Of a DNA stretch of 64,000 nt, positions 14,459 through 48,530 are shown one piece after another. The translations under genes and the position numbers were made by a program. The first letter of the stretch is position 1; each line of letters opens with the position of its first letter. The notes beneath the pieces were generated by a model. That model had not been told where the DNA came from. It ran no database searches and saw only the letters and a program-made list of their open reading frames with translations. Origin of the DNA: Candidatus Latescibacterota bacterium (GTDB lineage Bacteria; Latescibacterota; UBA2968; GCA-2709665); NCBI GenBank assembly GCA_963667175.2, contig CAXXXF010000013.1, positions 160,001 to 224,000 on the forward strand, in the 5' to 3' direction.

Positions 14459-15517
<1,059 letters not shown>

Positions 15518-17635: not shown

Positions 17636-17675
17636 ACCTGCGGAATGCGTCAGCATGTGGGTGTAATCCTACGTC

Positions 17676-19603: not shown

Positions 19604-19625
19604 ATAGGATTTCAGGAACTGATCC

Positions 19626-22271: not shown

Positions 22272-22303
22272 TGGAATTCTCGTGCGGGATCATTGACATG
22301 CGT

Positions 22304-29424: not shown

Positions 29425-29465
29425 GGCCAAGCCCTTTCTGAGAATACGATTAAATATACGATATA

Positions 29466-29511
29466 TTGATTTTACAATCAAGGTTGACAATATATATCAA
29501 TTGTTTAGAAT
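29466..29511 (+). promoter_or_regulatory. Divergent promoter region with two TTGA-N-TCAA inverted repeats
   Basis: TTGATTTTACAATCAA (29466-81) and TTGACAATATATATCAA (29484-500); TTGACA-16 nt-TAGAAT. Confidence 0.6.
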
Positions 29512-29593
29512 TCATACAGAAACGGCGAATGCAAGCGGCAATTCGGTGTGTGCAAAACGCCCGCGAACGCGGGCAAGATTACAGGAGGACGAT

Positions 29594-30730
29594 ATGCCGG
29601 AACTGGAATTCGTTCCCGGCCTCAAGGGCGTGGTCGCGGCGCGGACGCGGCTGAGCAGGATCGACGGCGATGCGGGCGAGTTGATCCTTGGCGGGTTTCC
29701 GCTGGAATCGGTGGCGCGCAACGCGTCGTTTGAAGAGATGCTCTCCCTGTTGTGGCACGATCGGCTTCCGGATGCCGGTAAGTTGAACGAAGTCACGGAG
29801 GCGCTGGCAATACGGCGCGGGCTTCCTGAGGCGACCCACGCGGTACTCCGGGCAGCGGCAGCGAAGCGCGCGCCGGTGATCGATGCGCTCAGAATGGGCA
29901 CGGCCGCGTTGAGCCTCGGGGTCGATGAAGACTCGGACGCATGGATGGACGCGTTGACTGTCGTCGCCCGGTTCCCCACGCTGGTCGCGGCATATTGGAG
30001 GTTGCTGAACGACGAGGAACCGGTTGGGCCGCGTCACGATTTGGGTCATGCGGCGAACTATCTATACATGTTGAATGGCGAGGAGGCGAGCGCCGCCCGG
30101 GTCCGCGCGATCGAAACCTACCTGAATACCGTGATGGACCACGGGATGAATGCATCCACCTTTACGGCGCGGGTAATTATCTCCACGCGATCCGATATGG
30201 TCTCCGCGGTAACGGGCGCCATTGGCGCTTTGAAGGGACCGCTGCACGGCGGCGCGCCGGGACCGGCGCTGGATATGGTGTTCGAGATCGGGAGCGTGGA
30301 AAACGTGGAGCCGTATCTGCGTGCGAAACTGGATCGCGGGGAGCGGCTGATGGGGTTCGGCCACGCGGTCTACCGGGTGCGGGATCCGCGCGCGTCGGTG
30401 CTGGCGGCGGAGGCGGCGCGGTTCTTCAGCGAAGAAGGCGACCGGAAGGTGTACGATCTCGCCCTCGAGGTGGAACGTACCGCCGTGCGCCTGCTGGCCG
30501 AATTCAAACCGGGCCGGAATCTGGAGACGAACGTGGAGTTTTACACGGCGTTGCTGCTGCACGGTCTGGGCCTGCCGTCCGCGTTGTTCACGCCCACGTT
30601 TGCGGTGGGCCGCGTGGTTGGGTGGACGGCGCACGCACTCGAGCAGCGGGCGCAGGACCGGATCATCCGGCCGCGGGCGGAATACGTCGGCGCGACGGAC
30701 CGGCGCTGGAAGCCTCTCGGCGAGAGATGA
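29594..30730 (+). CDS. Citrate synthase / methylcitrate synthase
   Basis: PGLKGV, DHGMNASTF, GPLHGGA, MGFGH.VYR..DPR, NVEFY; AGGAGG RBS. Confidence 0.92.
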   Translation: MPELEFVPGLKGVVAARTRLSRIDGDAGELILGGFPLESVARNASFEEMLSLLWHDRLPDAGKLNEVTEALAIRRGLPEATHAVLRAAAAKRAPVIDALRMGTAALSLGVDEDSDAWMDALTVVARFPTLVAAYWRLLNDEEPVGPRHDLGHAANYLYMLNGEEASAARVRAIETYLNTVMDHGMNASTFTARVIISTRSDMVSAVTGAIGALKGPLHGGAPGPALDMVFEIGSVENVEPYLRAKLDRGERLMGFGHAVYRVRDPRASVLAAEAARFFSEEGDRKVYDLALEVERTAVRLLAEFKPGRNLETNVEFYTALLLHGLGLPSALFTPTFAVGRVVGWTAHALEQRAQDRIIRPRAEYVGATDRRWKPLGER

Positions 30731-33477: not shown

Positions 33478-34083
33478 TTACGACAATACACTTCGAATAT
33501 ACCCTAAGCCGTCGACGAATTTTGTCAGCAGTCGGCAATCGCGTTGAGTCAGTTCGGTTTCAATGTCCGGATTGGCGAAATCTCTGGAGTTTGTGGTTAT
33601 GAAACAGCGTGACTCGGGAGAACTCCTGTTCAGATGATCGACAACCGAAGCGTAAACGATCGAGTCTTGCGGAGAAAGGGTAAGCGTCCTTTGGAAATTT
33701 ATCGCCGCTCTGATAATATTCAATCCAGTCGGTATTACTTCAACGGTCCCCAGGATTTCTTCCAGGGTTTCATCCAACCGGCGCTTCTCCTCCTCACCAC
33801 TTCGGATCAACACGCCGGTGAGTTCGTCGAAATGTTTGGATGCATCCTCATAAGGACTTGAACGAGAAAGTTCCCGAATGGCTGTTGTAAGATCTTCGTG
33901 AATCCCGACTCTTCGCTTCGAGCGGCGAACCCACGTTTCGTAAGGTTCACCGATACTGAATGCGGGTAACACCATACGAATCTCCCCCGATTCCGATAGA
34001 CGCAAAAGTGCCGAGCAATGCTCATGCTCGGCTTGAAGAAATGCCAGTTCAAGTACGAAATTCGACTCCAGGTATACAATCAT
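33478..34083 (-). CDS. PIN domain protein
   Basis: MIVYLESNFVLE, LSPQDSIVYAS, FITTNSRDF. Confidence 0.8.
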   Translation of the reverse strand: MIVYLESNFVLELAFLQAEHEHCSALLRLSESGEIRMVLPAFSIGEPYETWVRRSKRRVGIHEDLTTAIRELSRSSPYEDASKHFDELTGVLIRSGEEEKRRLDETLEEILGTVEVIPTGLNIIRAAINFQRTLTLSPQDSIVYASVVDHLNRSSPESRCFITTNSRDFANPDIETELTQRDCRLLTKFVDGLGYIRSVLS

Positions 34084-34547
34084 GTCGTAGCTTCGAGTTC
34101 AAGGGAACCGTTTGTAACTGCTCTATATAATCCCGAGTCAAATATCCATTTGAGATTACCGTCAATCGAGTCAGGTCTCAGGTCCGCATGAAGTATATCT
34201 TCCAGCCACGACACCGTAAGCATTTCCAGCCCATATCGACTTAGTTCGATAAGGGATTGGTTGTATTTGAGATATGGTGCGAGTATGTCGCCAGCCTCGA
34301 TCTTATAGTCAGGTTTTGCCAGACGATCTGCTGTAGAAGACTCCGTCCAAAGGTATAGAAAGTCGGGGAGTACTAGCAGAAAGAAGGGCGCAGGAGGCAG
34401 AAACGAATGGGCCAGCAAGTTGCGACGCATCAGGGTGACCCACTCGGCAGATGCACCGGGTACGTTCTTAATTTCCAGGACGAGTTGGAGTGTTCCATCG
34501 GCGCCGGACACCGCTATGTCGACGTTTCTCACTGTACGGACCTCCAC
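34080..34547 (-). CDS. Hypothetical protein, possible PD-(D/E)xK fold
   Basis: VDIAV...LVLEIK pattern; ATGA-coupled to the PIN gene. Confidence 0.6.
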   Translation of the reverse strand: MEVRTVRNVDIAVSGADGTLQLVLEIKNVPGASAEWVTLMRRNLLAHSFLPPAPFFLLVLPDFLYLWTESSTADRLAKPDYKIEAGDILAPYLKYNQSLIELSRYGLEMLTVSWLEDILHADLRPDSIDGNLKWIFDSGLYRAVTNGSLELEATT

Positions 34548-34839: not shown

Positions 34840-34872
34840 GCGCCGGCGGCTTTTGTCGCCGGTGTTTTTTTT
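34840..34872 (+). terminator. Rho-independent terminator-like hairpin upstream of the peptide locus
   Basis: GCGCCGGCGGC-TTTT-GTCGCCGGTGT followed by a T run. Confidence 0.6.
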
Positions 34873-35048
34873 GCGGGAAGCAGAGGTTGCGGCAGGCTGA
34901 AGACCGTGCAAAGTGCAACATCGTTTCAGACGTGTGATGACGATTGGAACGGATCATTCAACGTTCCGCAGCGGGACGGCCGCCTGGCGAAGGGTTGAAG
35001 ATAAACTCGCATTTGCGGGCCAGCCAGTTACGCCGAGGGCATTGCGAA

Positions 35049-35063
35049 TGGCACGAGGATTGC
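35049..35063 (+). promoter_or_regulatory. sigma54 (-24/-12) promoter
   Basis: TGGCACGAGGATTGC matches TGGCAC-N5-TTGC, GG-N10-GC spacing. Confidence 0.7.
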
Positions 35064-35291
35064 GAGTCAACTGCATCGACGGCGTCACGAACGGCAGATG
35101 TTGCGTGACAGGGCAATTCCGTTGATTCGCAGCCGAAGCGGACCCCGCGGCAGGTACGCCGCGGTCGTCAGACGCCATTCGAAACGCTTCGGACATCCTG
35201 GCATTTCAGCGACGCGCAGCCGGCGCACTGATCTGCGACGTTGAAGATTGTTCCGGCATCGCTGAGATGTGAACGAAAGGAGGTGAGGGAC

Positions 35292-35483
35292 ATGAACAGA
35301 AGCATTGCATCGAGCCCTGCGGCGTCTCACGAAGTTCCGACCCGTCTGCCGGTTCAGACGGAAGACCTGACCGCCGGGCAAACCGCGCGGGTCTCGGGAG
35401 GAAGAATACGCTGGTGGAACATATTCGGAGAACTATTCGGCGCCGATCCGCCGGAGACGGGTGATTCCGGTTCGGTACTGTAG
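35292..35483 (+). CDS. Double-glycine leader precursor peptide 1 (63 aa)
   Basis: AAAGGAGGT RBS; leader ...DLTAGQTARVSGG | core RIRWWNIFGELFGADPPETGDSGSVL. Confidence 0.78.
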   Translation: MNRSIASSPAASHEVPTRLPVQTEDLTAGQTARVSGGRIRWWNIFGELFGADPPETGDSGSVL

Positions 35484-35554
35484 TGGTGAAGGAACTCGTG
35501 AATCAGGTCTGACTGAGAGGCATCGCAGAGACAATTCAGAAAGGAGTTGACGAA

Positions 35555-35743
35555 GTGACTGATCGAATCCGACCGCAGCCGGCACATGCCTTCTTGGCCT
35601 GTGGCCAACTTCCAGGGCGGGAAACCAACCTTGCACCGCCTGAGATGAGGAATGCATCTGGTGGAATTGGTATGCCACCCATTTTACCAGTAGCGATTGC
35701 CAGACTTATCGCCGAGGCAGTCGTAGATTATTTCGACGACTGA
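35555..35743 (+). CDS. Double-glycine leader precursor peptide 2 (62 aa)
   Basis: AAAGGAG RBS; leader ...NLAPPEMRNASGG | core IGMPPILPVAIARLIAEAVVDYFDD. Confidence 0.78.
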   Translation: MTDRIRPQPAHAFLACGQLPGRETNLAPPEMRNASGGIGMPPILPVAIARLIAEAVVDYFDD

Positions 35744-36170
35744 AATTGAGTGCGGGGCCTGTCAGGCGGAAAGTAATCCATCCTGCCGATATCGACTACT
35801 GATGTAGCGGGCTTCTCAGAAGACTCCGTGAAGCCAGCACGGAATCGTCCGCAATTCAACCCAACGGAGAATTGCCCAGGTTGCATTCAGAGTCGGTAGC
35901 CGGATCCTGCCGGGCCTTGCTGAAGCGATCGAGAAAGGCCGTGATAAAGTGACGGTCCATGTTACATTGGGGTCCAGTGGATTTTCGAAAGGCGGACGCC
36001 GATCTACCGCCAGGGCTATCGAATGAGCACTGAATTTGAAGTCCCACCCAAGAATGCAGCTCGATTCTCGAACCCAATGACCGTCCGGAAAAGACACCGT
36101 ATCCGTAACCCGAGATTCAGGCCATTTGGCTGCAAGACCGCAAATCCGATTAACTCTTCAGGAGGACATC

Positions 36171-36443
36171 ATGACACATGCATTGGCTTATCCGGCGGTG
36201 ACCGATGCTGGTCACAAGCTTGTAGCCTGCAACACACTGCAGCGACGGGAAGAATTGCTTGATAATGGACAGATGGGAGAAACTCAGGGTGGTGGTATCT
36301 TTATACCATTCCTCATCGTGGCCGCCAAAGCTGCAGCACCCTACGTAGCGACTGGTGTGACTGCTATCGTTGTTGGAGTGACAGTCGCTGAGTTAACGTC
36401 CAAAGACGACAACAAGTGCTGTAGCTGCAGCTGCAAAAAATGA
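36171..36443 (+). CDS. Double-glycine leader precursor peptide 3 (90 aa)
   Basis: AGGAGG RBS; leader ...LLDNGQMGETQGG | hydrophobic core ending KCCSCSCKK. Confidence 0.82.
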   Translation: MTHALAYPAVTDAGHKLVACNTLQRREELLDNGQMGETQGGGIFIPFLIVAAKAAAPYVATGVTAIVVGVTVAELTSKDDNKCCSCSCKK

Positions 36444-36542
36444 GAAGTAAGCACCAGTAGTTCTGAACATGGGATAGGGGCAACTCGCGAAACCTGCTCC
36501 TATCCCGAAAAAGTTCGGTTGATTCAACAGTGGAGGTCCAGA

Positions 36543-37436
36543 ATGAAGTACTCGGTACTCGGTGGGAGATGGAGACGTTTTTTTCTCACGGCTTTGTTAT
36601 ATGCGTTCTTTTCCGTTGCGCCGGCGATGCTTATTCTCAGATTCGTCTTTAATCTGGACAATTCAGTGCTGTTAGCAATTCTCGTTGGTCAAGCATTTAC
36701 GTTATTAATCCTCCAAAAGACATTCTCCGAGTACGCTGGTAGAATATTGACCTCCGTCTGCAAACTCTATTCACCGAATTTCGGCCAAAAAGAAACCGGT
36801 GAAGATCAAAAGGTCATGGAAGTGATCTACGACAAGGAAGATATCTACAATTTGTCCTTCTTGATGCTCTGGTTTTTGGGGATGACGATTTTCGTGTTGG
36901 GCGCCTTTCTTCCTTGGGAAATCGAGTTTCGATTTCCCGTCGACGATCTGTTGATTCTGTTGGGAAGTACTGTTGTTTTGTTCGTTATTCACGAAGCACT
37001 TCACGGTCTTGCAGCAATAACGTGGGGAAAGTTCCCGATTAAATCGCTGCACTTCGGATTCAACATGCGCTTGATCGTGTTTTACTGTCACGCGGACAGG
37101 CCCATGACGGTGAGCGCTTACCGGATGTTCGCGATCTTGCCGATGATCGTGACCACTCCGGTCGCTGGTCTGATAATATGGTGGGACCCGGCGATCTGGT
37201 CGCTATTATTCTTCAGCGTCGTATTCTGCGGATGTGCTGGAGATGTGCTCGTCGTTTTCGGAATTCGTGGAGTAGAGAATGACAAATGGATTCAGGATCA
37301 TCCGTCGGAAGTCGGATTCTACGTGTTGTCATCCAGAGAGACGCCGATAATACGCGATGATGAACCCTACGAACCAATGCGGAACGACCCGCATTCTTCA
37401 TCCCCAACTTCTAAACTTCTACGCATTCTGCGTTGA
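36543..37436 (+). CDS. DUF3267-like membrane zincin peptidase
   Basis: IHEALHG (HExxH), FYCH, GCAGD, IQDHP..VGF; multiple TM segments. Confidence 0.78.
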   Translation: MKYSVLGGRWRRFFLTALLYAFFSVAPAMLILRFVFNLDNSVLLAILVGQAFTLLILQKTFSEYAGRILTSVCKLYSPNFGQKETGEDQKVMEVIYDKEDIYNLSFLMLWFLGMTIFVLGAFLPWEIEFRFPVDDLLILLGSTVVLFVIHEALHGLAAITWGKFPIKSLHFGFNMRLIVFYCHADRPMTVSAYRMFAILPMIVTTPVAGLIIWWDPAIWSLLFFSVVFCGCAGDVLVVFGIRGVENDKWIQDHPSEVGFYVLSSRETPIIRDDEPYEPMRNDPHSSSPTSKLLRILR

Positions 37437-37464
37437 AGTCAAACTGTAAGGCTAAGGTATTCAG

Positions 37465-38307
37465 GTGGCGTACCCAAACCTGAAGCAGGCGATTTGGTTG
37501 CTTGCCTTATTTTTTATTTTTCAAGGGGTTTTAGCAGTGCCTGTAGGTATCGTCGACAGTTGCCTACTTGAAAACGAACTCCTGTGGGGAATTCTGTCGT
37601 TCGTGAGTCTCCTGGTCATTTTGGGTTACGTGACCAGCCGCACCGATCTGGACTGGAAATACCTGCGGCAGCTATTCAGCACAGGTTTCGATTGGCGGGT
37701 CTGGGCCTGCGTTGTAATTACGATCGTTGGCGTGCTTATATTTGACGTTGTTCTGATTGATGCATTGACTCGAATCGTTCCTTTGCCGGAGTGGCTGCAC
37801 GATACCTTTTCTCCGGAGATCGGACGCGAAACACCCATATGGTCAATCTTCGTCACCTCGGTCGTTATTGGGCCGTTTGTGGAAGAGTTGCTTGTCAGGG
37901 GTATTATCCTGAGCGGCCTGCTGGCACACTACACAAGGGCCTCTGCAATAGTGTGGTCGGCAGTTTTATTTGGTGTTTATCATATCCACCCCTGGCAAGT
38001 TGTGCTGTCCTTTTTTACCGGCCTGGTCTGGGCATGGTGGGTGGTCCGGACCGGGTCCTTGCTTCCCGCGTTATTCGGGCACGCACTGATCAACTTCGTC
38101 GCGGCCACGACTGGGCATCTCCTTAACTCATCGCACCCGGTTTCAGAAGACCTCGATAATGCGTCATTTCTTCCGTGGTGGTTAGGTGTAGCCGGGCTGG
38201 CGCTCGCTACGCTTGGACTGTGGTGGTTTTCCCGGGTTGCAGTACCCGTTCAACACGATTCCGGGGGTGAGACGCTGCATGAAGACGTCGGTACGGATGC
38301 AGGATAG
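37465..38307 (+). CDS. CPBP (CAAX/Abi) intramembrane metalloprotease 1
   Basis: GPFVEELLVRG, FGVYH, RTGSL, HALIN. Confidence 0.9.
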   Translation: MAYPNLKQAIWLLALFFIFQGVLAVPVGIVDSCLLENELLWGILSFVSLLVILGYVTSRTDLDWKYLRQLFSTGFDWRVWACVVITIVGVLIFDVVLIDALTRIVPLPEWLHDTFSPEIGRETPIWSIFVTSVVIGPFVEELLVRGIILSGLLAHYTRASAIVWSAVLFGVYHIHPWQVVLSFFTGLVWAWWVVRTGSLLPALFGHALINFVAATTGHLLNSSHPVSEDLDNASFLPWWLGVAGLALATLGLWWFSRVAVPVQHDSGGETLHEDVGTDAG

Positions 38308-38489
38308 CGACTGATGGGCCATGTCCGGCACTGAACGTAGCGGCGTCGATTGCGGGTCCATTGCTACGGCTGAAAACGGTGGATCACGAGCGCCTACATA
38401 CTATATATAGTAAATACAGAATCGGAAAACAACGTGCGGTAGCCCGTCGGACATTGGTTAAGATCCAGACAATCGAATAAACCTCCAGT

Positions 38490-41400
38490 ATGCGTAAGAG
38501 TACAATGGACGTTCTCGAGTTCTTTTCACAATCGTCGATTCGGTCGGAAACCGCTCGATTTCCCTTCGGGTCGGTCGTCTTCGATCAAGGGGAGCCCGGC
38601 GAAGCGTTCTACGTCGTCCAATCCGGCCGGTTGCGAGTGATCAGGCGTAATGCGGACGGCGATTCCGAAACGATCGGTTTCCTGTATCCCGGCGACCACT
38701 TCGGTGAGGGAGCGCTGCTGACCGGTCGCGGGCGCCGGGCATCGGTGCGCGCGGTGGAGGATTCAGATGTATTGCGGGTGTCCCGGGACGATTTCGCCAG
38801 GTTATTGAGAAAAGAACCCGAACTGAAAGCACATCTCCACGATCATGTGGCGAATATCGCGCACAGGAATTTCACCCGATATCTGAAGGGGTCCGTTTCC
38901 GGCGACGGGACGCGGAGACTGCTCCGTCGTTTGAAGCGGGAGGAGATTGCGAGGGGAGCGACGGTTGCCGGTCCCGGTCACTCGCGAGGGCGGTTCTGCG
39001 TGGTGGGAAGCGGCGAGTTGGTGATGACGTCCGGGGATGGCGGCGACCATCGTCTGGGCGCGGGTCATTTCTACGAGGAAACCGATCACTCCGACGGAGA
39101 GACCCCGGTTGTCCGCAGTTCCCGGGACAGTGTTCTGTTCTACCTGGACGAGAGCGACTTTCGGGTACTTGGCGAAGCGGCCGCCGAGTTGGGGTCGGCG
39201 ACCGCCCTGGTGCGCCAATTGCGCGCAGCAGAGAATTCGAACGTGTCACCGTCTCTCGGGACCCGTCCTTCCGAGGCGCGCGCCCTGGTCGAAGCCCGAT
39301 CGCCAGATGGGAAAGACGTCACCGACGCGAATGGACCGGCAACCGGAATCGGGAGCGGCGAATCGGAACAGGGCAGAAACCGCGCGCCGTCGTCGTTCCG
39401 TTTTCCATTCCTGAAACAGCACGATCAGTCGGATTGCGGCGCGGCATGTCTGGGGATGATCTGCAAGTATTACAAGATGCCGATCGGGCTGAACCGGCTG
39501 CGCGATATGTGCAACGTTTCACGCGACGGCACGTCGATGGCGGCGCTGGCCGAGGCGGCGGAGACGCTCGGGTTCGTCACGCGGGGCGTGCGCACGGGTT
39601 ATGAAGCGCTGATGCGGACCGGGCTTCCGGCGATTCTGCACTGGAAAGGCAACCATTTTGTGGTGTTGTATGAAATATTCAAAAAGAAGGTGAGAATCGC
39701 CGACCCCGGCCTGGGTATCCGCACGCTCTCCCGTGAGGAGTTTGAGAAGAGTTGGACCAATATGGCCCTCTTGCTGGAATACACGGATCAGGTGTCCGAG
39801 AATGAACCCTCCAGGTCTTCCTTCAAACGGTTCTTCCCCTTGATCAAACCCTATACGCCCATCCTGATCGAGGTGTTGCTGGCGTCCCTCGTGCTCAGCC
39901 TGTTCGGGCTGGCTTCACCGGTATTCACGCAGACAATCGTGGACCAGGTGCTTGTGCATCATGACAGGGATCTGTTGAACCTGATGCTGGCGGGAATGGT
40001 CGTTGTGGCGCTGTTCCAGATGGGCACGTCGACGTTACGGGCTTATCTGATCGGTTATATCAGCGCGCGTCTCAGCCTGACCATGCTGTCCAGGTTCTAC
40101 CGGCACCTGCTGGGTCTTTCCATGCGGTTCTTCGCGCTCAGGCGCACCGGCGATCTGACCACGCGGTTCAAGGAGAATGCCACAATCCAGCGCCTGTTTA
40201 CGGATACAACCGTGTCCGCGATACTGGACTTCATCATGTTATTCGTCTACCTCGGGCTGATGTTCTATTACAACTGGGAGTTGACGCTCGTGATGTTGAT
40301 TTTCGCGCCGCTATCCGTGGGTCTCACGCTGATCTATACGCCGATATTGAAGTCCTTCAGCCAGCGCGCCTTTCTTGCCCGCGCGGAACAATCGTCCGTG
40401 CTGATCGATTCATTGCACGGCGTCGACGTGGTGAAGGCCGAGGCCGTCGAACGCGTCACCCGCTGGCAATGGGAAGGGAAGTTCACGAAAGAAATCCAGA
40501 TCGGGTTCAAGCGTCTGAAGATGGAGATGCTGTTCGGGGCGGGGGGCAGTATGATCAATCTTTTGAGTTCAACCGTGATCCTGTGGTACGGCGCGTCCCT
40601 GGTTATGGAAGGGGAGTTGTCCGTGGGGCAGTTGATGGCGTTCAACGCGCTCATCGGCAACGTTATGGGACCTGTAATGGGGTTGATCGGCGTCTGGCCG
40701 GAAGTGCAGGAAGCCCGCGTCGCACTGGACAGGCTGAACGACGTGTACGACGCGAAGATGGAGGACGCGCGCCAGCGAGGACAAGGCATGAGACTGAAAC
40801 GGGTGAGAGGGCGCGTGGAATTCGACGAGGTGTTTTTCAGGTACGGCGTGGGCTCCGACGAACCCTACGTGTTGAACAATATCAACCTGAATCTCGAACC
40901 GGGACGCAAAGTCGCAATCGTAGGGCGGAGCGGGGCGGGCAAGACCACGCTGGTGAAGCTGGTGCCGCGCCTGTTCGATCCCTCTGAAGGGCGGGTGACC
41001 CTCGATGGGGTGGACGTGCGCGACCTGGATCCGCACTGGCTTCGGCGCCAGGTGGGCATGGTGATGCAGGATCCGTTCCTGTTCAGCGGCACGATTTCGG
41101 AAAACATCGCGGTCGGAGAAGCGGACGCCGATATGGATCGGGTCCTTGAAGTGGCGAGAATGGCCTGTGTACAGGACTTTGTGACCGAGATGCCCCTGGG
41201 ATTTGAGACAAGAGTCGGTGAGCAGGGGATCGGATTGTCCGGCGGACAGCGGCAACGGATTGCGATAGCGAGAGCGCTGTACCGTGATCCGGGAATCCTG
41301 ATCTTCGACGAAGCCACAAACGCGCTGGATACGGACTCCGAAGGCGCGATCCAGGCCAACCTGGACCTTTTCCTCGAAAACCGCACGGCGATGATCATTG

Positions 41401-41546
41401 CTCATCGTTTGAGTACCGTGCGGGATGCAGACGTGATTGTCGTGTTGGAAAAGGGCCATATCGTCGACACGGGGACGCATGAAGAACTCATGGATCGCCG
41501 CGGCCTCTACTACCACATGGCCGGCCAGCAGTTGCATATGGCTTGA
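38490..41546 (+). CDS. Peptidase-containing ABC transporter (cNMP-binding domains + C39 + TMD + NBD)
   Basis: cNMP: GDHFGEGALL...RRASVRA; C39: QHDQSDCGAACL, HWKGNHFVV, IADP; NBD: GRSGAGKTT, LSGGQRQR, DEAT. Confidence 0.93.
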   Translation: MRKSTMDVLEFFSQSSIRSETARFPFGSVVFDQGEPGEAFYVVQSGRLRVIRRNADGDSETIGFLYPGDHFGEGALLTGRGRRASVRAVEDSDVLRVSRDDFARLLRKEPELKAHLHDHVANIAHRNFTRYLKGSVSGDGTRRLLRRLKREEIARGATVAGPGHSRGRFCVVGSGELVMTSGDGGDHRLGAGHFYEETDHSDGETPVVRSSRDSVLFYLDESDFRVLGEAAAELGSATALVRQLRAAENSNVSPSLGTRPSEARALVEARSPDGKDVTDANGPATGIGSGESEQGRNRAPSSFRFPFLKQHDQSDCGAACLGMICKYYKMPIGLNRLRDMCNVSRDGTSMAALAEAAETLGFVTRGVRTGYEALMRTGLPAILHWKGNHFVVLYEIFKKKVRIADPGLGIRTLSREEFEKSWTNMALLLEYTDQVSENEPSRSSFKRFFPLIKPYTPILIEVLLASLVLSLFGLASPVFTQTIVDQVLVHHDRDLLNLMLAGMVVVALFQMGTSTLRAYLIGYISARLSLTMLSRFYRHLLGLSMRFFALRRTGDLTTRFKENATIQRLFTDTTVSAILDFIMLFVYLGLMFYYNWELTLVMLIFAPLSVGLTLIYTPILKSFSQRAFLARAEQSSVLIDSLHGVDVVKAEAVERVTRWQWEGKFTKEIQIGFKRLKMEMLFGAGGSMINLLSSTVILWYGASLVMEGELSVGQLMAFNALIGNVMGPVMGLIGVWPEVQEARVALDRLNDVYDAKMEDARQRGQGMRLKRVRGRVEFDEVFFRYGVGSDEPYVLNNINLNLEPGRKVAIVGRSGAGKTTLVKLVPRLFDPSEGRVTLDGVDVRDLDPHWLRRQVGMVMQDPFLFSGTISENIAVGEADADMDRVLEVARMACVQDFVTEMPLGFETRVGEQGIGLSGGQRQRIAIARALYRDPGILIFDEATNALDTDSEGAIQANLDLFLENRTAMIIAHRLSTVRDADVIVVLEKGHIVDTGTHEELMDRRGLYYHMAGQQLHMA

Positions 41547-41573
41547 ACTTCCTGCCTACGAGGCGCCGGTACT

Positions 41574-42974
41574 ATGACGGGACACCCGCCGAAACCCTCA
41601 CCGGGCACAACGCCGCCGGTCGTTGCCGGGCAACGGGACGACCCCGCAGAAGACATGCGCGCGTTTATCGGTTCTCTTCGACCGTTTTGGGGTCGGGCGC
41701 TGCTATATATCGTGCTGCTTTTTGTCGGCATCGCGGTGGTCTGGGCGTGGTGGGGCGAGGTAGACGTGGTCGCGTCAGCGCCATTCAGGCTCGTGCCGCT
41801 CGGAAAAGTGAAGATATTGCAGGCCCGTCGAGGCGGTGAGATCGAATACATCGGAATCGCGGAAGGCGACCACGTCGAAGAAGGCCAACTGCTGTTCAAG
41901 CTCAAATCGTGGGAAACCTGGGGAGACCTGCGTGAACTCGAACAGGCGGAAGTAGCGTTTCAGAAGGCCGAGTACGATTTCCACCAGGTGTTGCCTCAGA
42001 AGACCGGATTAAACCGGGAGACGATCGCTTCGCTGAAGAAACGGCTTGCCGTTCTGGAGCGGTTTGCGGCAGCACATCAGAATGCCCTGGAGGACTACCA
42101 GGCCGACTCGGGTGACGTCGAGGCCACCGGAAGGAGCCCGTCGGACGGGGAACTGCAGGCGCAAATCAGCTTTCGGCAGGCCGAGATCGACCATCTGAAA
42201 CAGGACTACACGCAGCAGAAAATGCTGTACGAACGCCAATTGATCAGCAGGGCGGAGATCAATCGCGCACGCGTCAGATATCTGAGCGCCCTTGCGGCGC
42301 TTCCCGGACGCATGTCGGAAATCTACAAGAACGAAACGGCGGTCCAGGATCTCAAGCGCCAGATTCTCGAGGCTCGCATCGCCCACGGTCGCGAGGCCGC
42401 GCAGATAAGGCACGCACACAAGACCGCGCGGCTGAGACTGGATCAGGCGCACAAACGCGTCGATCGCCAGCTTGACGCCGAATCGGACCTGATTCTGGCC
42501 CCGGAGTCCGGAATGGTAACCCGGGTGGAGGTGAATACGCTCGGACAGGTCATCAACAAAGGACAGGCTCTGGTGACACTGGCGCCGGCGTCCGCGCCGA
42601 TCGTCGCCGAATTGACTGTTTTGAACAAGGACGTGGGCCTGCTCAAGCCGGGACAGATCGTCAAACTGAAATACGACGCATTCGCGTTCCAGGACTTCGG
42701 AATCAAACGCGGATGGCTCAAGCAGATCTCGCCGGATGCCGTCATCGACGAGACCGTAGGACCGATATTCAAAGGCGTCGTTGAATTGGAGGAGACCACC
42801 ATGGCCGTGAAAGGACAGGAAAAGCCGCTCCTCTTCGGCATGAAGGGCACGGCGGAGATCATGACGGACCGTCAGTCGGTCCTTCTGATGCTGCTGAGTC
42901 CATTGCGAAAGCTGTACGAATCCGCAACGTACGACGCCGCGACAATGCCGTCCGTGCGCCGGGGTGAAACGTGA
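41574..42974 (+). CDS. HlyD-family membrane fusion protein
   Basis: N-terminal TM, EGDHVEEGQLL lipoyl half, coiled coil, ILAPESG, YDAFAFQDFG, GMKGTAEI. Confidence 0.9.
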   Translation: MTGHPPKPSPGTTPPVVAGQRDDPAEDMRAFIGSLRPFWGRALLYIVLLFVGIAVVWAWWGEVDVVASAPFRLVPLGKVKILQARRGGEIEYIGIAEGDHVEEGQLLFKLKSWETWGDLRELEQAEVAFQKAEYDFHQVLPQKTGLNRETIASLKKRLAVLERFAAAHQNALEDYQADSGDVEATGRSPSDGELQAQISFRQAEIDHLKQDYTQQKMLYERQLISRAEINRARVRYLSALAALPGRMSEIYKNETAVQDLKRQILEARIAHGREAAQIRHAHKTARLRLDQAHKRVDRQLDAESDLILAPESGMVTRVEVNTLGQVINKGQALVTLAPASAPIVAELTVLNKDVGLLKPGQIVKLKYDAFAFQDFGIKRGWLKQISPDAVIDETVGPIFKGVVELEETTMAVKGQEKPLLFGMKGTAEIMTDRQSVLLMLLSPLRKLYESATYDAATMPSVRRGET

Positions 42975-43774
42975 TGCGCCGTGAGGATGAACACGAAGCC
43001 ACAAACGCGGCCGGGACTGCATCGCTGGTTCGGGTCAATGGAATCGACGTGTCCCTGAAGCAGGTCGTGCGACATCTGGGCGTCGCAGACAAGCTCGGAT
43101 TCCTCGGTGACTACGCTCGAAGAGAACTGGTGCGGCAACTCGCGGAGAGGGAGGGCATCCACGCGAAGGCTGAGGATATCCAGCGCGACGTGGACGACTG
43201 GCGGTATCGACGGCGCCTGGAACGCGTGGAAGATACGGAAGCCTGGCTCCTGTCCAGAGGCATTACGCTCGGTGACGTCGCCGAAGACGCCCAGGTAAGA
43301 CGATTGGAGCGTATGATGTCCCAAAAAGTCTCGGAGGGAAGGATCGAAGCCTACTTCGCACAGCACACGCTGGATTTCGACGAGGCCGAGGTCTGCTGGA
43401 TTTTCCATCAGAATCGTGGCGTCATAGACGAAATCGGATCTCAGACCCGTGAAGAGGGCGCCAATTTCTGCGCATTCGCCCGCGAATTCTCTCAGGATGA
43501 GCGCACGCGGCCGGCAGGCGGGTTTATGGGGCGGTTGCGGCGAGAGCATTTGCCGAAGGGCATTGCCGCGCGCCTCTTCGCTGCCGCGCCGGGTGAAATC
43601 TTCGGTCCCGAAAAAGCGCCGGGTGGCTTCGCGCTGTATATGCTGCAGAGAAGCTACCCGGCAACGCTGGCCGATCGCGTCATCGACGAGATTCGCGACA
43701 CATTGTTCAACCACTGGCTGCACGGGGAGATGCAACGGGCGGACATTCGCTATCCGGTCAGGGAATCAGTATAG
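42971..43774 (+). CDS. PpiC-type rotamase / SurA-like chaperone associated with peptide export
   Basis: FCAFAREFSQD...AGGFMG, FAAAPGEIFGP; GTGA-coupled to hlyD. Confidence 0.8.
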   Translation: MMRREDEHEATNAAGTASLVRVNGIDVSLKQVVRHLGVADKLGFLGDYARRELVRQLAEREGIHAKAEDIQRDVDDWRYRRRLERVEDTEAWLLSRGITLGDVAEDAQVRRLERMMSQKVSEGRIEAYFAQHTLDFDEAEVCWIFHQNRGVIDEIGSQTREEGANFCAFAREFSQDERTRPAGGFMGRLRREHLPKGIAARLFAAAPGEIFGPEKAPGGFALYMLQRSYPATLADRVIDEIRDTLFNHWLHGEMQRADIRYPVRESV

Positions 43775-44018
43775 CAGGACTTTCATCATACGCGAAGCGG
43801 AAGCGGTTGATGGGGTAGTTCGACTGTGCCGATCCTTCAGTTCTGAAGGCGCGGCTCTCACTGCAAGGGATGCGCCGGAATGATGAATCCGGGAAGTCCG
43901 CCGCTTGTTACCGGCGCGCGAACCTGGATCTAATGGACAATGAAGAATCGTCTGCGGCGGCAGTGTCCTCCGGATATCTGATTTGCCGGCAAATGACGTT
44001 CGAATGAGGAGGGAGTAG

Positions 44019-44846
44019 ATGGCCTATCCGAATCTGAAGCAATCCGTTTGGTTGGTGGTCCTGCTTTTGGTAGCAATGAACGCATTGGGGTTGGTGCTTC
44101 ATTTCCTCGGCGCCGCGTCGGGCAATGCGACACGGATCTTTTATTACCTGGCATTGATCGCAAATCTGCCCGTTATTGGTCTGTTCGTGCTATACGCGCA
44201 ACGTCGATCCGGTCGGCCGTGGTCCGAAGTCCTGCTTTTCAATACAGTGCCGTGGAAAATGTACTTTCCCATTTCCGTCTCGATCGTGGGATTGGGCATT
44301 TTCATATCCAACCTTGCGAGCTTTGTTCAATATCTGATTCCAATCCCAGAAGAAATACTCGGCATGTTTCTTGATTTAATGGGCAGTAAAACACCATTTG
44401 GTCTTGCGTTTTATGTTCTGGCGATTCAAGCGCCGCTTACCGAGGAGGTCCTCTGCAGAGGCGTTATTCTGGGCGGGTTGTTATCCCACGGAACCCGGGG
44501 GCGTGCCATGCTGTGGTCCGCGTTTCTGTTCGCCGCGCTCCATATGAATCCCTGGCAATTTCCCGGAACATTGATACTGGGTATCGTATTTGCGTGGTGG
44601 GTCGTACATACGGGTTCCTTGGCGCCGGCGTTGTTCGGTCACGCGCTGAACAATTTCCTGTCACTGATAACGGTGCGTATGGAATTATTCCGACCTAACG
44701 AGGATTGGCATATTGTAGAGTTTCTTCCCTGGTGGCTGTTTGCGAGCGGTATCGTCCTGGCCGTGGCCGGTTTGTGGTGGTTCAAGCAGATGGCGCAGCG
44801 CGAAGCGAAGCCGGTCGTTGCGCCGGAGGACCAGGAGCCCGCCTGA
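44019..44846 (+). CDS. CPBP (CAAX/Abi) intramembrane metalloprotease 2
   Basis: APLTEEVLCRG, FAALH, HTGSL, HALNN; paralogue of 37465-38307. Confidence 0.9.
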   Translation: MAYPNLKQSVWLVVLLLVAMNALGLVLHFLGAASGNATRIFYYLALIANLPVIGLFVLYAQRRSGRPWSEVLLFNTVPWKMYFPISVSIVGLGIFISNLASFVQYLIPIPEEILGMFLDLMGSKTPFGLAFYVLAIQAPLTEEVLCRGVILGGLLSHGTRGRAMLWSAFLFAALHMNPWQFPGTLILGIVFAWWVVHTGSLAPALFGHALNNFLSLITVRMELFRPNEDWHIVEFLPWWLFASGIVLAVAGLWWFKQMAQREAKPVVAPEDQEPA

Positions 44847-45199: not shown

Positions 45200-46396
45200 A
45201 TGATTCCTCGAAAAAGATTGGACATCGGCTGGCGCGATCTCTTCTTCGGCATGGGCCAATGCCTATCGGGCGATAACCGCGCGAAAGGGCACGCTGCCTG
45301 CCGCGAAAACACCGGCAATCCCGACGAGGCCCTTTTCTTTCTTTCGCTTCGCAGCGGCTTCGATGCCGTTCTCCAGGCGGCCCGTTTTCCGCGTGGATCG
45401 CACGTCCTCGTGTCCGCCATCACCATCCCCGACATACTCGAAATCATCAGGAGCCACGGTCTCGTGCCCGTTCCGGTCGATCTGGATCCCCAAACGCTCG
45501 AACCCGATCCGGACAGCCTGAACAGCGGGCTTACGCCAAGAGCCGTCGCGCTGCTGGCCACCCATCTATTCGGGGCGCGTATCCCAATGGATCCCCTGGT
45601 GCGCTTCGCGCGAAAGCATGGCCTGGTGCTGTTCGAAGACTGCGCCCAGGCCTATTGCGGTGACGGCTTTACTGGTCATCCGGAGAGCCACGTGCGCATG
45701 TTCAGCTTCGGCCCGATCAAGTACTATACCGCGTTGGGCGGCGGCCTGCTCTTCGTGCGCGATCCCGACCTCCGAGACGAGGTCAGACGGTTGCATCACA
45801 GCTATCCGGTCCAGGGCAAGGCACGGTTCTTCTTGCGCCTCGCAAAATACGGCGTCGTTCTCCTGCTCAACAGACCCGGTCCCTATACGCTTCTATGCGC
45901 CGCGTGCCGCCTGCTGGGCATGTCGCACGATGCCGTGAGTTACCGCGCAACCCGCGGTTTCCGGGGGTTGGAACTGCTCAAGAAAATCCGCCGTCAACCC
46001 TGCGGCGCCCTTTTGCATTTATTGTCGAGGCGACTGCGCTCCAATGCACAGGAGCGCACGGGTTGCCGTAAGGAGGTCATCGCGTTTCATCGAAGCGTTC
46101 CGGAACTCTGTTATCCGGGCCGACGCGCGGACCACTCGTACTGGCTCTTCGTCGTCCGTGTCGGAAATGCCGCGGACTTGTGTCGGCAACTCTGGGACGC
46201 CGGCTTCGACGCGCACCTGTGGCCGCCGTCGCTATGCGTGGTCCCGCCAGACCGTAATCTGCCGGGCCAGGCGCCAACTTTCGTCAGGGCGCTGTGGCCG
46301 CAACTCCTGTTCCTTCCCGTTTACCCCCTCGTGGGGCGGGTCCGCGCGGGGCGTCTGAGCCGTATCGTGGGGAAGTGGGTCCGGATGCATGGGTGA
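45200..46396 (+). CDS. DegT/DnrJ/EryC1/StrS-family PLP-dependent aminotransferase
   Basis: PVPVD, THLFG, EDCAQA, FSFGPIK motifs. Confidence 0.82.
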   Translation: MIPRKRLDIGWRDLFFGMGQCLSGDNRAKGHAACRENTGNPDEALFFLSLRSGFDAVLQAARFPRGSHVLVSAITIPDILEIIRSHGLVPVPVDLDPQTLEPDPDSLNSGLTPRAVALLATHLFGARIPMDPLVRFARKHGLVLFEDCAQAYCGDGFTGHPESHVRMFSFGPIKYYTALGGGLLFVRDPDLRDEVRRLHHSYPVQGKARFFLRLAKYGVVLLLNRPGPYTLLCAACRLLGMSHDAVSYRATRGFRGLELLKKIRRQPCGALLHLLSRRLRSNAQERTGCRKEVIAFHRSVPELCYPGRRADHSYWLFVVRVGNAADLCRQLWDAGFDAHLWPPSLCVVPPDRNLPGQAPTFVRALWPQLLFLPVYPLVGRVRAGRLSRIVGKWVRMHG

Positions 46397-46667
46397 AACT
46401 CCCATCCCAATTGCAATCATCCCTCCCTGCCGCGGCCCGCGCGGCTGGGCCACCTTGTCTTCGGGGTCTACCCGTTCTCCCTGCAAATGCGACCCGGGAC
46501 ACCCCGATCCTGAATCCGCAGCCCCGGACGCGGGGTCATCAGAAACCGTCCGCCTATTTTGGTTTTTCCGCCGGTGTCTTGATATTATATTTGACCCGAT
46601 CGATCCACCCTTCCATCTGAAACATCCGCTCCCCGGCGCCGCGCGGAAACCCAACGGAGGCAATCCT

Positions 46668-48530
46668 ATGTCTGGTTCAAATACCGAAGCGATGGGTAAC
46701 GGCTTTTTTCATCACGGCGTCGCCACCCCGATCAGCAACCATCGTGGCACGGCCGTAACGGTGGACGGCGAGGGCCGTAACGTTGTTCTGATCTGGCTTT
46801 ACGACCACCGCGGCGGATACGCGCTTCTCATGATCGATGCGGAAACCGGCAAGAGCGAAGAATTCCTCATGCCGTATCCGCCGGGCGGCGACGGACCCTT
46901 CGCGGCCATCCTGTCCAGCCGAAACAGGTACTACACCCACTTCAACAGCCACTTTGTGGAATTTAACCCCGAAGAGCGCGCATTCACCTTCCATCACAAG
47001 ACCGTGCCGCAGATGGCCATGAGCATGACCGAGGACGACGACGGCCGCATCTGGTCCGGAACGTACCCAAACAGCGCGGTGGCATCCTACAACCCCCGGA
47101 CCGGAGAGTTCCGCGACTACGGCAATCTCTACGACCAGAACTGGCGTCAGTATCCCAGAGCGATCGCGGCCGACGATACCGGTTGGGTCTATTTCGGCAT
47201 CGGCAGCACCGCCAGTCAGATTATTTCCCTGGATCCGGAAAGCGGAAAGGCGGAACCTCTCCTTGTCGAAAGCGAGCGAAGCCAGGCCCACGCGCCGGTG
47301 TACCGTGACCTGAACGGAAAGGTCTACGGGCACACAAGCGGCGGAACCGAAGATGGGTGGATGGAACTGTATCGGGGTGTGAGAACGGACGTCGGCAAGA
47401 TCGAGAACAGACGTGAAAAACCCTTTATCGCCGGCAGTCAGGGCCTCTTCCACACCGATTTCCCCGACGGCAGGCGTATGGTCGCATGCAGCCTGGTCGA
47501 CCGTACTCTGGACGTGGAGGATCCCCGTTCCGGCGAAATCCGCCGGGTTTCATTCGACTATTCGAGCGAAGGCGCCCACATTATGGGCGTTGCAACGGCG
47601 CCCGACAATACCGTCTGCGGGGGCACCGCCTTTCCCATGCACTTCTTCAGCTTCAATCCGGAAACCGACGCCTGGACCAACCGTCCGGCACTGGGGCAGT
47701 GGAATACCGTCGCCAGAGAAGGTGGAATGTTCTTCATTGGCGCATACACCCACGGACTGCTTGAAGAATGGGACCCGGCCAGACCGTGGGTACACACAGA
47801 GCGTGGCAAGGCCGGCTGCAACCCGGATTTGCTATACGAATGCCACGAGGTCATCAACCGGCCTCACATGCTGCTTGCCCATCCGAACGGGAGAACCGTC
47901 GTCCTTGCCGGTACCCCCGGATACGGGTTGACAGGCGGCGGGATGCTGTTCTGGGACAGGCAGACCCGCAAGCACACCCTGCTCGAGCATACCGACGTCC
48001 TGCCCGACCAATCCACAATGAGCCTGGCGCCCCTGCCCGACGGCAAGCTTCTGGGGGGCACCACGACCAGCGCCGGTACGGGCGGCGAACAGAAAGCCAG
48101 TGAAGCAGAACTCTATATCATGGACATGGAATCGAAGCGGCTCGACTGGCACGCCGTAGTGTTCCCCGGCGCGCAGGGGTATACCGATATGTGTTCGGGG
48201 CCGAATGGTGTCGTCTACGGCGTGGTCGACCGCAGGCGCTTTTTCGTCTTCGATCCCGGAGCCAGGGGGGTGGTCCACCAGAAGGAGCTCGAATCCGAGT
48301 TCGGCCCTACAACGTCTCAGCAGGGCCCGAGGGTGTTCGTCACCGCGCCGGACGGCGCCGTTTACATCCTCTTCACGAAGGGTATCGCCACCGTGGATCC
48401 CGACACGTACGCGATCCGGTTGCTGGCGGAATCGCCCGTACCCATCGGTCCGGGAGGAGACATCCTCAACGGCCGCATCTACTTCGGCAGCGGGTCCCAC
48501 GTATACAGCTACAGGGTCCCGGAAGCGTAG
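46668..48530 (+). CDS. Beta-propeller-like hypothetical protein
   Basis: Repeated DGRIW/DGKL/NGVVYG beta-blade-like segments; GGAGG RBS. Confidence 0.6.
   Translation: MSGSNTEAMGNGFFHHGVATPISNHRGTAVTVDGEGRNVVLIWLYDHRGGYALLMIDAETGKSEEFLMPYPPGGDGPFAAILSSRNRYYTHFNSHFVEFNPEERAFTFHHKTVPQMAMSMTEDDDGRIWSGTYPNSAVASYNPRTGEFRDYGNLYDQNWRQYPRAIAADDTGWVYFGIGSTASQIISLDPESGKAEPLLVESERSQAHAPVYRDLNGKVYGHTSGGTEDGWMELYRGVRTDVGKIENRREKPFIAGSQGLFHTDFPDGRRMVACSLVDRTLDVEDPRSGEIRRVSFDYSSEGAHIMGVATAPDNTVCGGTAFPMHFFSFNPETDAWTNRPALGQWNTVAREGGMFFIGAYTHGLLEEWDPARPWVHTERGKAGCNPDLLYECHEVINRPHMLLAHPNGRTVVLAGTPGYGLTGGGMLFWDRQTRKHTLLEHTDVLPDQSTMSLAPLPDGKLLGGTTTSAGTGGEQKASEAELYIMDMESKRLDWHAVVFPGAQGYTDMCSGPNGVVYGVVDRRRFFVFDPGARGVVHQKELESEFGPTTSQQGPRVFVTAPDGAVYILFTKGIATVDPDTYAIRLLAESPVPIGPGGDILNGRIYFGSGSHVYSYRVPEA

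Follow-up and report, generated by a model that had tools for sequence, protein, structure and literature searches.

We analysed a group of genes in a 64,000-nucleotide (nt) stretch of DNA from an uncultured Candidatus Latescibacterota bacterium (GenBank contig CAXXXF010000013.1, positions 160,001 to 224,000; the whole stretch is referred to as the window). The group lies at 35.3-44.8 kb, all co-oriented on the + strand, and runs from three small precursor genes (preA, preB and preC) through a peptidase-containing ATP-binding cassette (ABC) transporter (PCAT) and its partner proteins to an intramembrane protease, CPBP2. We suggest that these genes form an operon for the cleavage-coupled export of three ribosomal peptides, which would serve competition between bacteria and against which membrane proteases would protect the producer; we assign this reading a probability of about 60%. 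Among its components, cleavage-coupled export is very likely, and an antagonistic role for the peptides stands at even odds. All of the evidence comes from sequence, taken from genomes of uncultured bacteria.

Three precursor genes and their leader family

The first gene, preA (35292-35483, +; ATG start), encodes 63 amino acids (aa), divided into a 37-aa leader (MNRSIASSP...ARVSGG) and a 26-aa core beginning RIRWW. It is followed by preB (35555-35743, +; GTG start, 62 aa), with a 37-aa leader (...LPGRETNLAPPEMRNASGG) and a 25-aa core, IGMPP...AEAVVDYFDD, and by preC (36171-36443, +; ATG start, 90 aa), with a 41-aa leader (...LQRREELLDNGQMGETQGG) and a 49-aa core. The leaders and cores are predicted to part between ...LTAGQTARVSGG and RIRWW in preA, between ...LAPPEMRNASGG and IGMPP in preB, and between ...LLDNGQMGETQGG and GIFIP in preC, where the predicted cut, after the second G, is judged from orthologues. 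Ribosome-binding sites (AAGGAGG, AAAGGAG or CAGGAGG, the first of these belonging to preA) lie 6-9 nt 5' of the starts. All three leaders have L at -12, Q/E at -8 and GG at -2/-1, and the general pattern of a double-glycine leader (GG/GA/GS at -2/-1; hydrophobic residues at -4, -7 and -12; an acidic or polar residue at -8) is found in each. The net charges of the cores, counted from the sequences, are approximately -2, -3 and +2. The preC core contains one transmembrane-like stretch, whose hydropathy peaks at 1.75 over 19 residues, as well as a Cys-rich tail (CCSCSCKK).

The locus was compared with relatives sampled as 14 kb around 20 homologues of the transporter's N-terminus, which joins a cyclic nucleotide-binding (cNMP) domain to a C39 peptidase, and 20 kb around 37 loci retrieved via the PpiC-like protein encoded 3' of the transporter. 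These 37 relatives and the window make up a set of 38 loci, across which counts are not phylogenetically independent: 13 are of the window's type and descend from one common ancestor, while the other 25 are of a sister type. Searching related genomes with the leader profile, as the original prediction had proposed, we found one to four leader open reading frames (ORFs) 5' of the genes for PCAT, HlyD and the PpiC-like protein in 34 of the 38 loci, all within one Candidatus Latescibacterota order. Of the four loci that have none, one is truncated, and in another the upstream edge lies at a protease gene. The order PCAT-HlyD-PpiC is kept in 37/38 loci, the remaining one (L081) being truncated, and of 41 related genomes, drawn from two families of the order, 40 have the cNMP-C39 N-terminus. 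By this comparison of sequences the locus is a conserved unit.

Homologues of preA and preC were detected in relatives by tblastn (down to E 6e-19 and 4e-29, respectively) in the syntenic position 5' of the transporter, and 17 orthologues of preB could be aligned. When 114,443 stop-to-stop ORFs of the genome were searched with leader profiles, only preA, preB and preC matched (E 8e-16 to 2e-8; the next best was 0.083); because the profiles contain these three sequences themselves, the search shows uniqueness rather than independent significance. None of the three matched a Pfam or NCBIfam family at E<=0.01, with NHLP/Nif11 and other named leader families included. Together with the ribosome-binding sites and the leader consensus, the syntenic homologues indicate that preA, preB and preC are real genes and genuine double-glycine precursors, as the original prediction had held. 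Its expectation that annotation would miss or mis-start them fared less well. The exact sequences of preA and preC, with identical starts, are in public protein sets on a 240,704-bp contig; preB, with its GTG start, was found as an exact sequence in a protein collection from one other source only, on a 1,648-bp contig.

Iterated profile searches seeded with each of the three leaders converged on one family, with 62 of 121 ORFs common to all seeds. Statistics were drawn from relatives, which provided 83 distinct leaders. All of these have G at -2, whereas position -1 is G in 63 leaders, L in 17, A in 2 and T in 1, and the 17 with L are atypical for double-glycine leaders. L at -12 occurs in 78/83, E/Q at -8 in 70/83 and M at -7 in 58/83, and the L of an 'LP' motif approximately 19 residues N-terminal to the cut is likewise invariant. 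A GGAGG-type ribosome-binding site precedes the ATG or GTG of every one of the 83 ORFs. Among 184 pairs, substitutions in leader DNA at codon positions 1/2/3 numbered 1013/1086/2151, and single-base codon changes were synonymous in 1445 cases versus 1063 non-synonymous; by these counts the leaders are under purifying selection.

The cores behave differently from the leaders. Over 410 pairs whose leaders were at least 50% identical, mean identity was 0.63 for the leader versus 0.30 for the core, and the core was better conserved than the leader in only 23 of these pairs. Moreover, unrelated alternative cores ride on one leader type at the same locus position: the core of the first gene is either of the RIRWW type (k6) or of a DAGLGRL type (k3), and that of the last gene combines a transmembrane stretch either with a Cys-rich tail (k5, the type found in the window) or with a tail ...ADGLSNL (k4). 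Judged from these alignments, the pattern is one of diversifying cargo on a fixed export tag. Sixteen of the 83 cores begin with Cys and 12 end in Cys clusters. Pro occurs within the first six core residues in 48/83, compared with 33.7 +/- 4.4 in shuffles, a suggestive difference that we do not count as evidence since the sequences are related.

Searched against 1.84 billion representative proteins, the profile of the 83 leaders retrieved 101 proteins at E<=1e-3, of which approximately 90 are small with the leader at the N-terminus. The few database matches and the lack of a Pfam or NCBIfam model mark a narrow, unnamed family of double-glycine leaders of unusual length (37-44 aa). The cores that it carries amount to a natural library on one export tag, with approximately 100 clusters at 50% identity that include acidic, Trp/Pro-rich, Cys-rich and transmembrane types.

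Could the small ORFs be chance frames, and the transporter an exporter of a large protein or a glycan? The transporter does have sub-threshold similarity to HlyB-type and HepA-type exporters in NCBIfam, and the sister loci are placed among sugar genes. We nevertheless give this reading almost no credence, in view of the translated conservation in synteny, the universal ribosome-binding sites, the excess of third-position substitutions, a leader family unique within the genome and the intact triad of the C39 domain. Nor do the loci show the pattern that would have spoken for it, transporters consistently lacking such peptides and exporting RTX proteins instead: peptides accompany the transporter in the great majority of the 38 loci, as counted above, and no RTX-type gene lies nearby in the window.

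Between preB and preC lies a spacer of 427 bp (35744-36170) that is conserved and non-coding, with 83% identity over 477 nt to relative L050 and 77% over 489 nt to L049. Its substitutions fall at codon positions in a ratio of 24/20/27, stops interrupt all six frames, 1-nt indels occur and codon periodicity is lacking; the spacer may be regulatory or give rise to an untranslated RNA. An Rfam scan gave no match inside the locus. We also considered a relic fourth precursor and found none in the spacer, in the upstream region or in the gap between the PpiC-like gene and CPBP2. Approximately 420 bp 5' of preA there is a strong terminator-like hairpin (34840-34875, +; 11 pairs, 8 of them G-C, followed by T8), with no + strand gene before it.

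The transport genes

The transporter (38490-41546, +) is a long-type PCAT of 1018 aa in which a cNMP domain and a C39 peptidase precede a six-helix ABC membrane domain and a nucleotide-binding domain (NBD) (Pfam: cNMP_binding 1.8e-28, Peptidase_C39 1.5e-40, ABC_membrane 5.3e-54, ABC_tran 7.1e-34). The cNMP domain spans residues 23-108 and the C39 peptidase residues 305-431. In an alignment with peptidase domains of known structure, those of LahT and PCAT1 (6mpz, 4ry2, 8vp3), Q310, C316, H389 and D405 fall on the Gln/Cys/His/Asp motifs, as expected from the original prediction that the catalytic motifs are intact. We take these residues to be the catalytic positions, in agreement with C347/H420 of the cyanobacterial protein HetC. 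The NBD has its Walker A motif (GRSGAGKT) at 812, its signature (LSGGQ) at 916 and its Walker B motif (LIFDEAT) at 937. With the four C39 residues, the ABC membrane domain and the NBD motifs all in place, the protein is by its sequence a PCAT, and it is the sole C39-bearing ABC transporter in the genome. The genes for the PCAT, the DUF3267 protein and the PpiC-like protein (similar to TIGR04500) are each single-copy in the genome and, like the three leader ORFs, are found only at this locus.

Downstream, an HlyD-family membrane fusion protein (41574-42974, +) with one N-terminal transmembrane helix (residues 42-60) matches TIGR01843 at 6.9e-61, its score of 206.5 bits lying just under the cut-off of 208.65. 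Its stop is overlapped by the start of a gene for a PpiC/SurA/PrsA-like protein (42971-43774, +; Rotamase 6.6e-10). Pfam and NCBIfam scans bore out every domain named in the original prediction, these two as well as the HExxH-bearing DUF3267 protein and the two CPBP proteins described below.

The PpiC-like protein scores 91.3 bits against TIGR04500 (PpiC_rel_mature, 340 positions) as a protein and 89.7 on the genome; with a cut-off of 180 and a match that covers profile positions 82-336 only, it falls outside that family. No signal peptide and no transmembrane or other hydrophobic segment was detected in it, and since it has no hydrophobic segment it is probably cytoplasmic. The His of the parvulin G-x-H motif is catalytic. 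In the PpiC-like protein it is replaced by Ala221, invariant in 17/17 aligned sequences, and the GfH/GwH of SurA aligns with GFA; the active-site His of a parvulin prolyl isomerase is thus missing. A structure model from the 17-row alignment had a mean pLDDT of 60, with the parvulin part poorly modelled, and a Foldseek search with it placed YacD, PrsA and SurA at the top (E 4e-6 to 5e-4, TM ~0.3), lending support to a fold class like that of PrsA/SurA. Complex prediction for the PpiC-like protein with preB, using alignments, gave a score of 0.03 against a mark of 0.32, and the program returned no call. The description of this protein in the original prediction as a chaperone stays plausible, for a protein that appears to be cytoplasmic and has lost the conserved parvulin His.

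From these features we propose the following route. The precursors would be synthesised in the cytoplasm with their leaders of 37-41 aa. The C39 domain of the single PCAT would read the amphipathic part of the leader from -15 to -1 (L-12, E/Q-8, M-7, a hydrophobic residue at -4, and GG) and cut after GG, and the cores would be exported by the ABC transporter and HlyD, probably together with a TolC-like protein, six of which are encoded at other places in the genome. An LptD domain and the TolC-like genes point to a diderm envelope. The N-terminal cNMP domain, which retains its FGE...RRAS cassette, may gate the pump in response to a nucleotide signal. The SurA/PrsA-like protein could, instead of isomerising prolines, serve as a holdase or a partner in delivery, with the conserved upstream half of the leader as its candidate handle.

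A further element was seen in relatives approximately 200 bp 3' of the PpiC-like gene. It measures ~255 nt (L049:11003-11257), occupies the same place in L050-L057, L078, L081 and L084, and is 87-93% identical in DNA among 12 relatives, more than the flanking genes are; it is absent from the corresponding gap of the window (43775-44018), whose genome has a weak partial copy on another contig, C16 (76% over 141 nt). The element has a promoter-like site (TTGTCA-17-TATATT), a closing helix of 21 bp with hairpins inside, and a GC hairpin with a T-run behind it. RNAalifold gave -87.5 kcal/mol with 68 pairs, 3 of which have compensatory changes, and no Rfam family reached its gathering score (sRNA-Xcc1 scored 28 bits versus the 53 needed). 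We regard it as a candidate for an unnamed small RNA gene.

Intramembrane proteases and the role of the peptides

Two genes for membrane proteases separate preC from the transporter. The first, starting 99 nt 3' of preC, encodes a predicted DUF3267 (PF11667) membrane metalloprotease (36543-37436, +; Pfam 1.9e-14, covering profile positions 2-103 of 108) with HEALH at residue 150 and six hydrophobic segments, the last of which holds a GD that is a candidate for the distal Asp of the S2P clan. The second, CPBP1 (37465-38307, +; Pfam 2e-18), is an Rce1-like/CPBP intramembrane protease with EELLVR, FGVYH and HALIN. CPBP2 (44019-44846, +; Pfam 1.7e-18), another protease of this type, lies 3' of the PpiC-like gene and has EEVLCR, FAALH and HALNN, so that the EExxxR, FxxxH and HxxxN motifs of the CPBP family (PF02517) are present in both proteins. 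They also have the N-terminus MAYPNLKQ in common. The region from preC to CPBP1 has a G+C content of 47-50%, compared with ~57-64% in the transport genes and the flanks.

Across the locus set the invariant module consists of the precursors followed by PCAT-HlyD-PpiC, with 0-4 DUF3267 or CPBP genes in between; in the window's genus two or three further CPBP genes lie 3' of the PpiC-like gene, and orthologues of CPBP2, 62-87% identical, are found in all loci of the genus. The proteases are linked to one kind of peptide. CPBP genes occur in 16/16 loci with a transmembrane-like core versus 6/18 loci without one, an association that its nominal p-value exaggerates because the loci are related. Directly 3' of a transmembrane-type peptide, DUF3267 follows in 10 of 12 cases and CPBP in the other two. 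A tree built from 30 DUF3267 proteins places the window's protein in a clade with 12 members. This clade occurs in all loci of the genus, including loci with k4 instead of k5, and a further distinct DUF3267 clade follows k4 directly. This retention of DUF3267 without its neighbouring peptide type resembles, by analogy, the behaviour of orphan immunity genes. The number of peptides per locus did not clearly scale with the number of CPBP and DUF3267 genes (Spearman 0.27, p 0.10). Single-linkage clustering of the two families at 55% identity merged nearly everything and was replaced by the tree.

CPBP proteins serve as bacteriocin immunity factors. We suggest that the S2P-like DUF3267 protein and the glutamic-type CPBP proteins act on membrane-seeking peptides, chiefly the transmembrane-type preC, most likely for self-protection and alternatively to make a second processing cut. 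Protection of the producer seems to us evenly poised, and processing of the peptides is the less probable of the two functions. Immunity, which the original prediction named along with maturation for the CPBP proteins, is accordingly one reading of two, since the first DUF3267 protein to be characterised, TmcP, is a leader-removing intramembrane protease (PMC13712780). As described there in 2026, TmcP, of the S2P clan, excises the 45-residue leader of a single-helix bacteriocin precursor within the membrane.

On another reading, preC, DUF3267 and perhaps CPBP constitute a membrane maturation pathway like that of the staphylococcal peptide TMcin, in which the peptide is inserted, cut and extracted; the proteases would then be biosynthetic and the product similar to a ribosomally synthesised and post-translationally modified peptide. 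In favour, preC resembles the substrate of TmcP in its leader of 41 residues, its single transmembrane-like stretch and the Cys at its C-terminus, and DUF3267 follows most transmembrane-type peptides, with distinct clades after k4. However, the canonical GG of preC and the intact C39 domain should already remove the leader, neither a TmcBC-type transporter nor a two-helix escort gene was found at the locus, the window's DUF3267 clade is kept in loci without k5, and two of the 12 transmembrane-type peptides precede CPBP instead. We consider such a pathway improbable. A combination of ideas is slightly less so, if still unlikely: a nucleotide-gated PCAT would handle two-part leaders, of which C39 reads the GG-proximal helix and the SurA-like holdase the LP half, while DUF3267 and CPBP act on the transmembrane peptide. 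If true, this would be a diderm counterpart of the TMcin membrane pathway published in 2026 and the first HetC-type triad with a natural cargo readable from the genome, and could serve as a search template for the missing cyanobacterial substrates.

Returning to our preferred reading, in which the peptides are most likely a small cocktail of unmodified, class II-like peptides for competition between bacteria, several observations weigh against it. Cores are net negative in 63 of 83 cases, which is unusual for pore-forming bacteriocins. Many loci of the sister genus encode neither CPBP nor DUF3267 (12/34 loci), which makes the proteases accessory. Neither a classical small immunity gene nor a gene for an outer-membrane factor is part of the locus. 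The one DUF3267 protein characterised so far has its role in the maturation of a bacteriocin and not in protection from it (PMC13712780), and for HetC, the only studied relative with a cNMP domain, ppGpp binding in vitro and a cargo thought to be a signal have been described (PMC10986499).

A rival view is that the peptides are themselves signals, pheromonal or developmental, released by the nucleotide-gated PCAT on a physiological cue, as proposed for HetC, and matured or turned over by the proteases. The intact cassette of the cNMP domain and the mostly anionic cores would suit this role. So would weak NCBIfam matches of the two CPBP proteins to MroQ (E 1.7e-4 and 5.8e-5); MroQ acts in staphylococcal autoinducer processing. 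HetC adds a precedent, as a cNMP-PCAT needed for differentiation with a presumed signalling cargo (PMC10986499). On the other hand, the conserved unit contains no gene for a histidine kinase, a response regulator or another receptor, and hypervariable cores, with alternative types per position and up to four peptides per locus, fit a diversifying conflict better, as do protease cassettes kept where the neighbouring peptide type is absent. We therefore rate signalling as unlikely.

Modifying enzymes, neighbouring genes and comparison with known systems

The original prediction had stressed that the locus has no modifying enzyme. For the window this held: the 34 ORFs scanned (16-64 kb) contain no YcaO, LanM/LanC, radical SAM or glycosyltransferase domain. 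It held for the genus too as regards glycosyltransferases, since none of the 13 window-type loci has the pair of same-strand glycosyltransferase genes that lies just 5' of the precursors in 19 of the 25 sister-type loci (L059:17-4084, L066:1927-4646, L082:78-4072 and 16 more). Because of that pair, the word 'unmodified' cannot be extended to the whole family. It encodes a GT28-C-containing protein of 440-860 aa and a 467-aa protein of the GT1 family, and the distance to the first precursor amounts to 53-61 nt in L059, L060, L082, L083 and L085 and ~220 nt in L079. Pairs are also found at two or three paralogous loci of one genome. Copies of the 467-aa protein are ~87-91% identical to each other, more conserved than the transporters, and a tree of them, built to date the duplication, did not separate the copies by locus type. 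On the 3' side, sister loci are followed by a UDP-GlcNAc 2-epimerase gene or an opposite-strand PhyH gene.

Modification in trans, for instance glycosylation by enzymes encoded elsewhere, would mean that the window's locus merely looks unmodified. The sister-genus pairs lend this some colour, and glycosyltransferase genes accompany core types k3, k4 and k5 in some loci but not in others. Yet a search of the window's genome, 95% complete, gave no match to the 467-aa enzyme at E<=1e-5, and this, with the results for the window and for its type of locus, makes the proposal very unlikely. Two downstream genes were considered as modifiers and rejected: the pair of a DegT-like aminotransferase and a 713-aa protein (46389-48530) is absent beside sister-genus loci. 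The 713-aa protein has one weak sub-threshold Pfam match and approximately six paralogues in every genome of the genus, and these are scattered.

The surroundings of the locus have further features. Upstream on the - strand (33478-34547), the gene for a 201-aa PIN_12-domain protein overlaps the stop of an upstream gene for a 155-aa protein without known family; the two look like a toxin-antitoxin or PIN-partner pair, and the 155-aa gene also flanks the locus in relative L084. Matches to group II intron families lie at 14459-15491 (-): RF02003 (100.7 bits) and RF00029 (46.5 bits). A low-GC stretch (16235-25177; 49-56%) looks like a restriction/defence islet; its genes encode a DNA methylase, an HD-domain protein and a ResIII helicase, along with a 957-aa fusion of HTH, Eco57I-type methylase and BsuBI/PstI endonuclease domains. 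At 28186-30730 two citrate-synthase-like frames stand next to each other on opposite strands, the minus-strand one with an N-terminal HTH_17 domain. A dispersed repeat of 30-90 bp (L049:11505-11765) has more than 40 matches on 12 contigs of the window's genome.

Among known systems, the export of class II microcins and bacteriocins of the CvaAB-TolC type employs a PCAT and a membrane fusion protein, with the outer-membrane factor supplied in trans. The window's locus shares with it the double-glycine leaders, the PCAT and fusion protein, the putative supply of the outer-membrane factor in trans and several apparently unmodified peptides per locus. It differs in leaders of 37-44 rather than ~15-25 aa, in the cNMP domain as a possible gate, in the predicted cytoplasmic SurA-like partner, in mostly acidic cores and in having intramembrane proteases in place of small immunity proteins. 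Kjos and co-workers are said to have described, in 2010, Abi/CPBP bacteriocin immunity proteins of lactic acid bacteria. Intact EExxxR/FxxxH/HxxxN motifs in multi-peptide double-glycine loci are common to those systems and to this one; here, however, up to five copies occur, they are paired with DUF3267 in a Gram-negative-type phylum, and protection is putative. Glycocin clusters contain a glycosyltransferase gene, and the window's locus does not.

The TMcin pathway of Staphylococcus aureus (TmcA/TmcP/TmcE/TmcBC/TmcD; PMC13712780) likewise has a long-leader, one-helix peptide with a C-terminal Cys beside DUF3267, as preC and its neighbour are arranged here. In this comparison, made from the published description, the window's locus would export through a C39-PCAT and HlyD rather than TmcBC, belongs to a putative diderm, has no DsbA gene, and has a GG site that predicts removal of the leader by C39. 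No TmcBC-type exporter and no two-helix escort like TmcE was found, only DUF3267 and CPBP genes lying between preC and the PCAT, where a very small escort ORF is possible. The pairing of a transmembrane peptide with DUF3267 and CPBP would extend a protease family that was first given a function in 2026.

MirC (TIGR04500) of the rosaritide graspetide cluster is another precedent, for a chaperone-type domain similar to SurA whose gene lies next to that of a PCAT in a peptide cluster. MirC is required by the graspetide synthetase and interpreted as a chaperone, not an isomerase, and its N-terminal domain is reported to resemble a peptide-recognition element (PMC13097080). Relative to that account, the window's PpiC-like protein lacks the N-terminal domain of ~80 residues, and the locus has no ATP-grasp enzyme.

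HetC of Nostoc PCC 7120 is the same kind of cNMP, C39 and ABC exporter with catalytic Cys/His; its published account gives no identified substrate and no adjoining membrane fusion gene (PMC10986499), whereas here HlyD and three candidate substrates adjoin the PCAT.

The closest counterpart is the cyanobacterial 'group I' of Wang, Fewer and Sivonen (2011; PMC3140520), in which one cluster combines HlyD and a SurA-like rotamase with a long-type PCAT that has an additional CAP_ED domain. All three are found together in the window's locus, and by the published description the three-protein transport core and the domain order of the transporter are the same as in groups I and II. The original prediction had rightly pointed to cyanobacteria for this triad. 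It had also called the system undescribed; because the triad matches group I, the type of system is not new. What is new is the family of 37-44 aa leaders, the phylum and the protease cassettes, none of them described in the literature searched, where we found no publication on this locus. Equally new is a visible cargo for the cNMP-PCAT/HlyD/PpiC triad: the 57 group I clusters had a mean of 0.35 recognised precursors each (PMC3140520), compared with one to four per locus in nearly all of the loci studied here. By the same description the Latescibacterota host, leaders without an NHLP/Nif11 match and the added CPBP/DUF3267 cassettes also set this locus apart from group I. The combination of a long-type PCAT, HlyD and a SurA-like partner is the commonest bacteriocin-type cluster in cyanobacteria, and its cargo there is mostly unrecognised. 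Recognisable cargo in an uncultured phylum thus offers a tractable set in which to study nucleotide gating, the role of the SurA-like protein and the leader features that this widespread cyanobacterial type of exporter reads.

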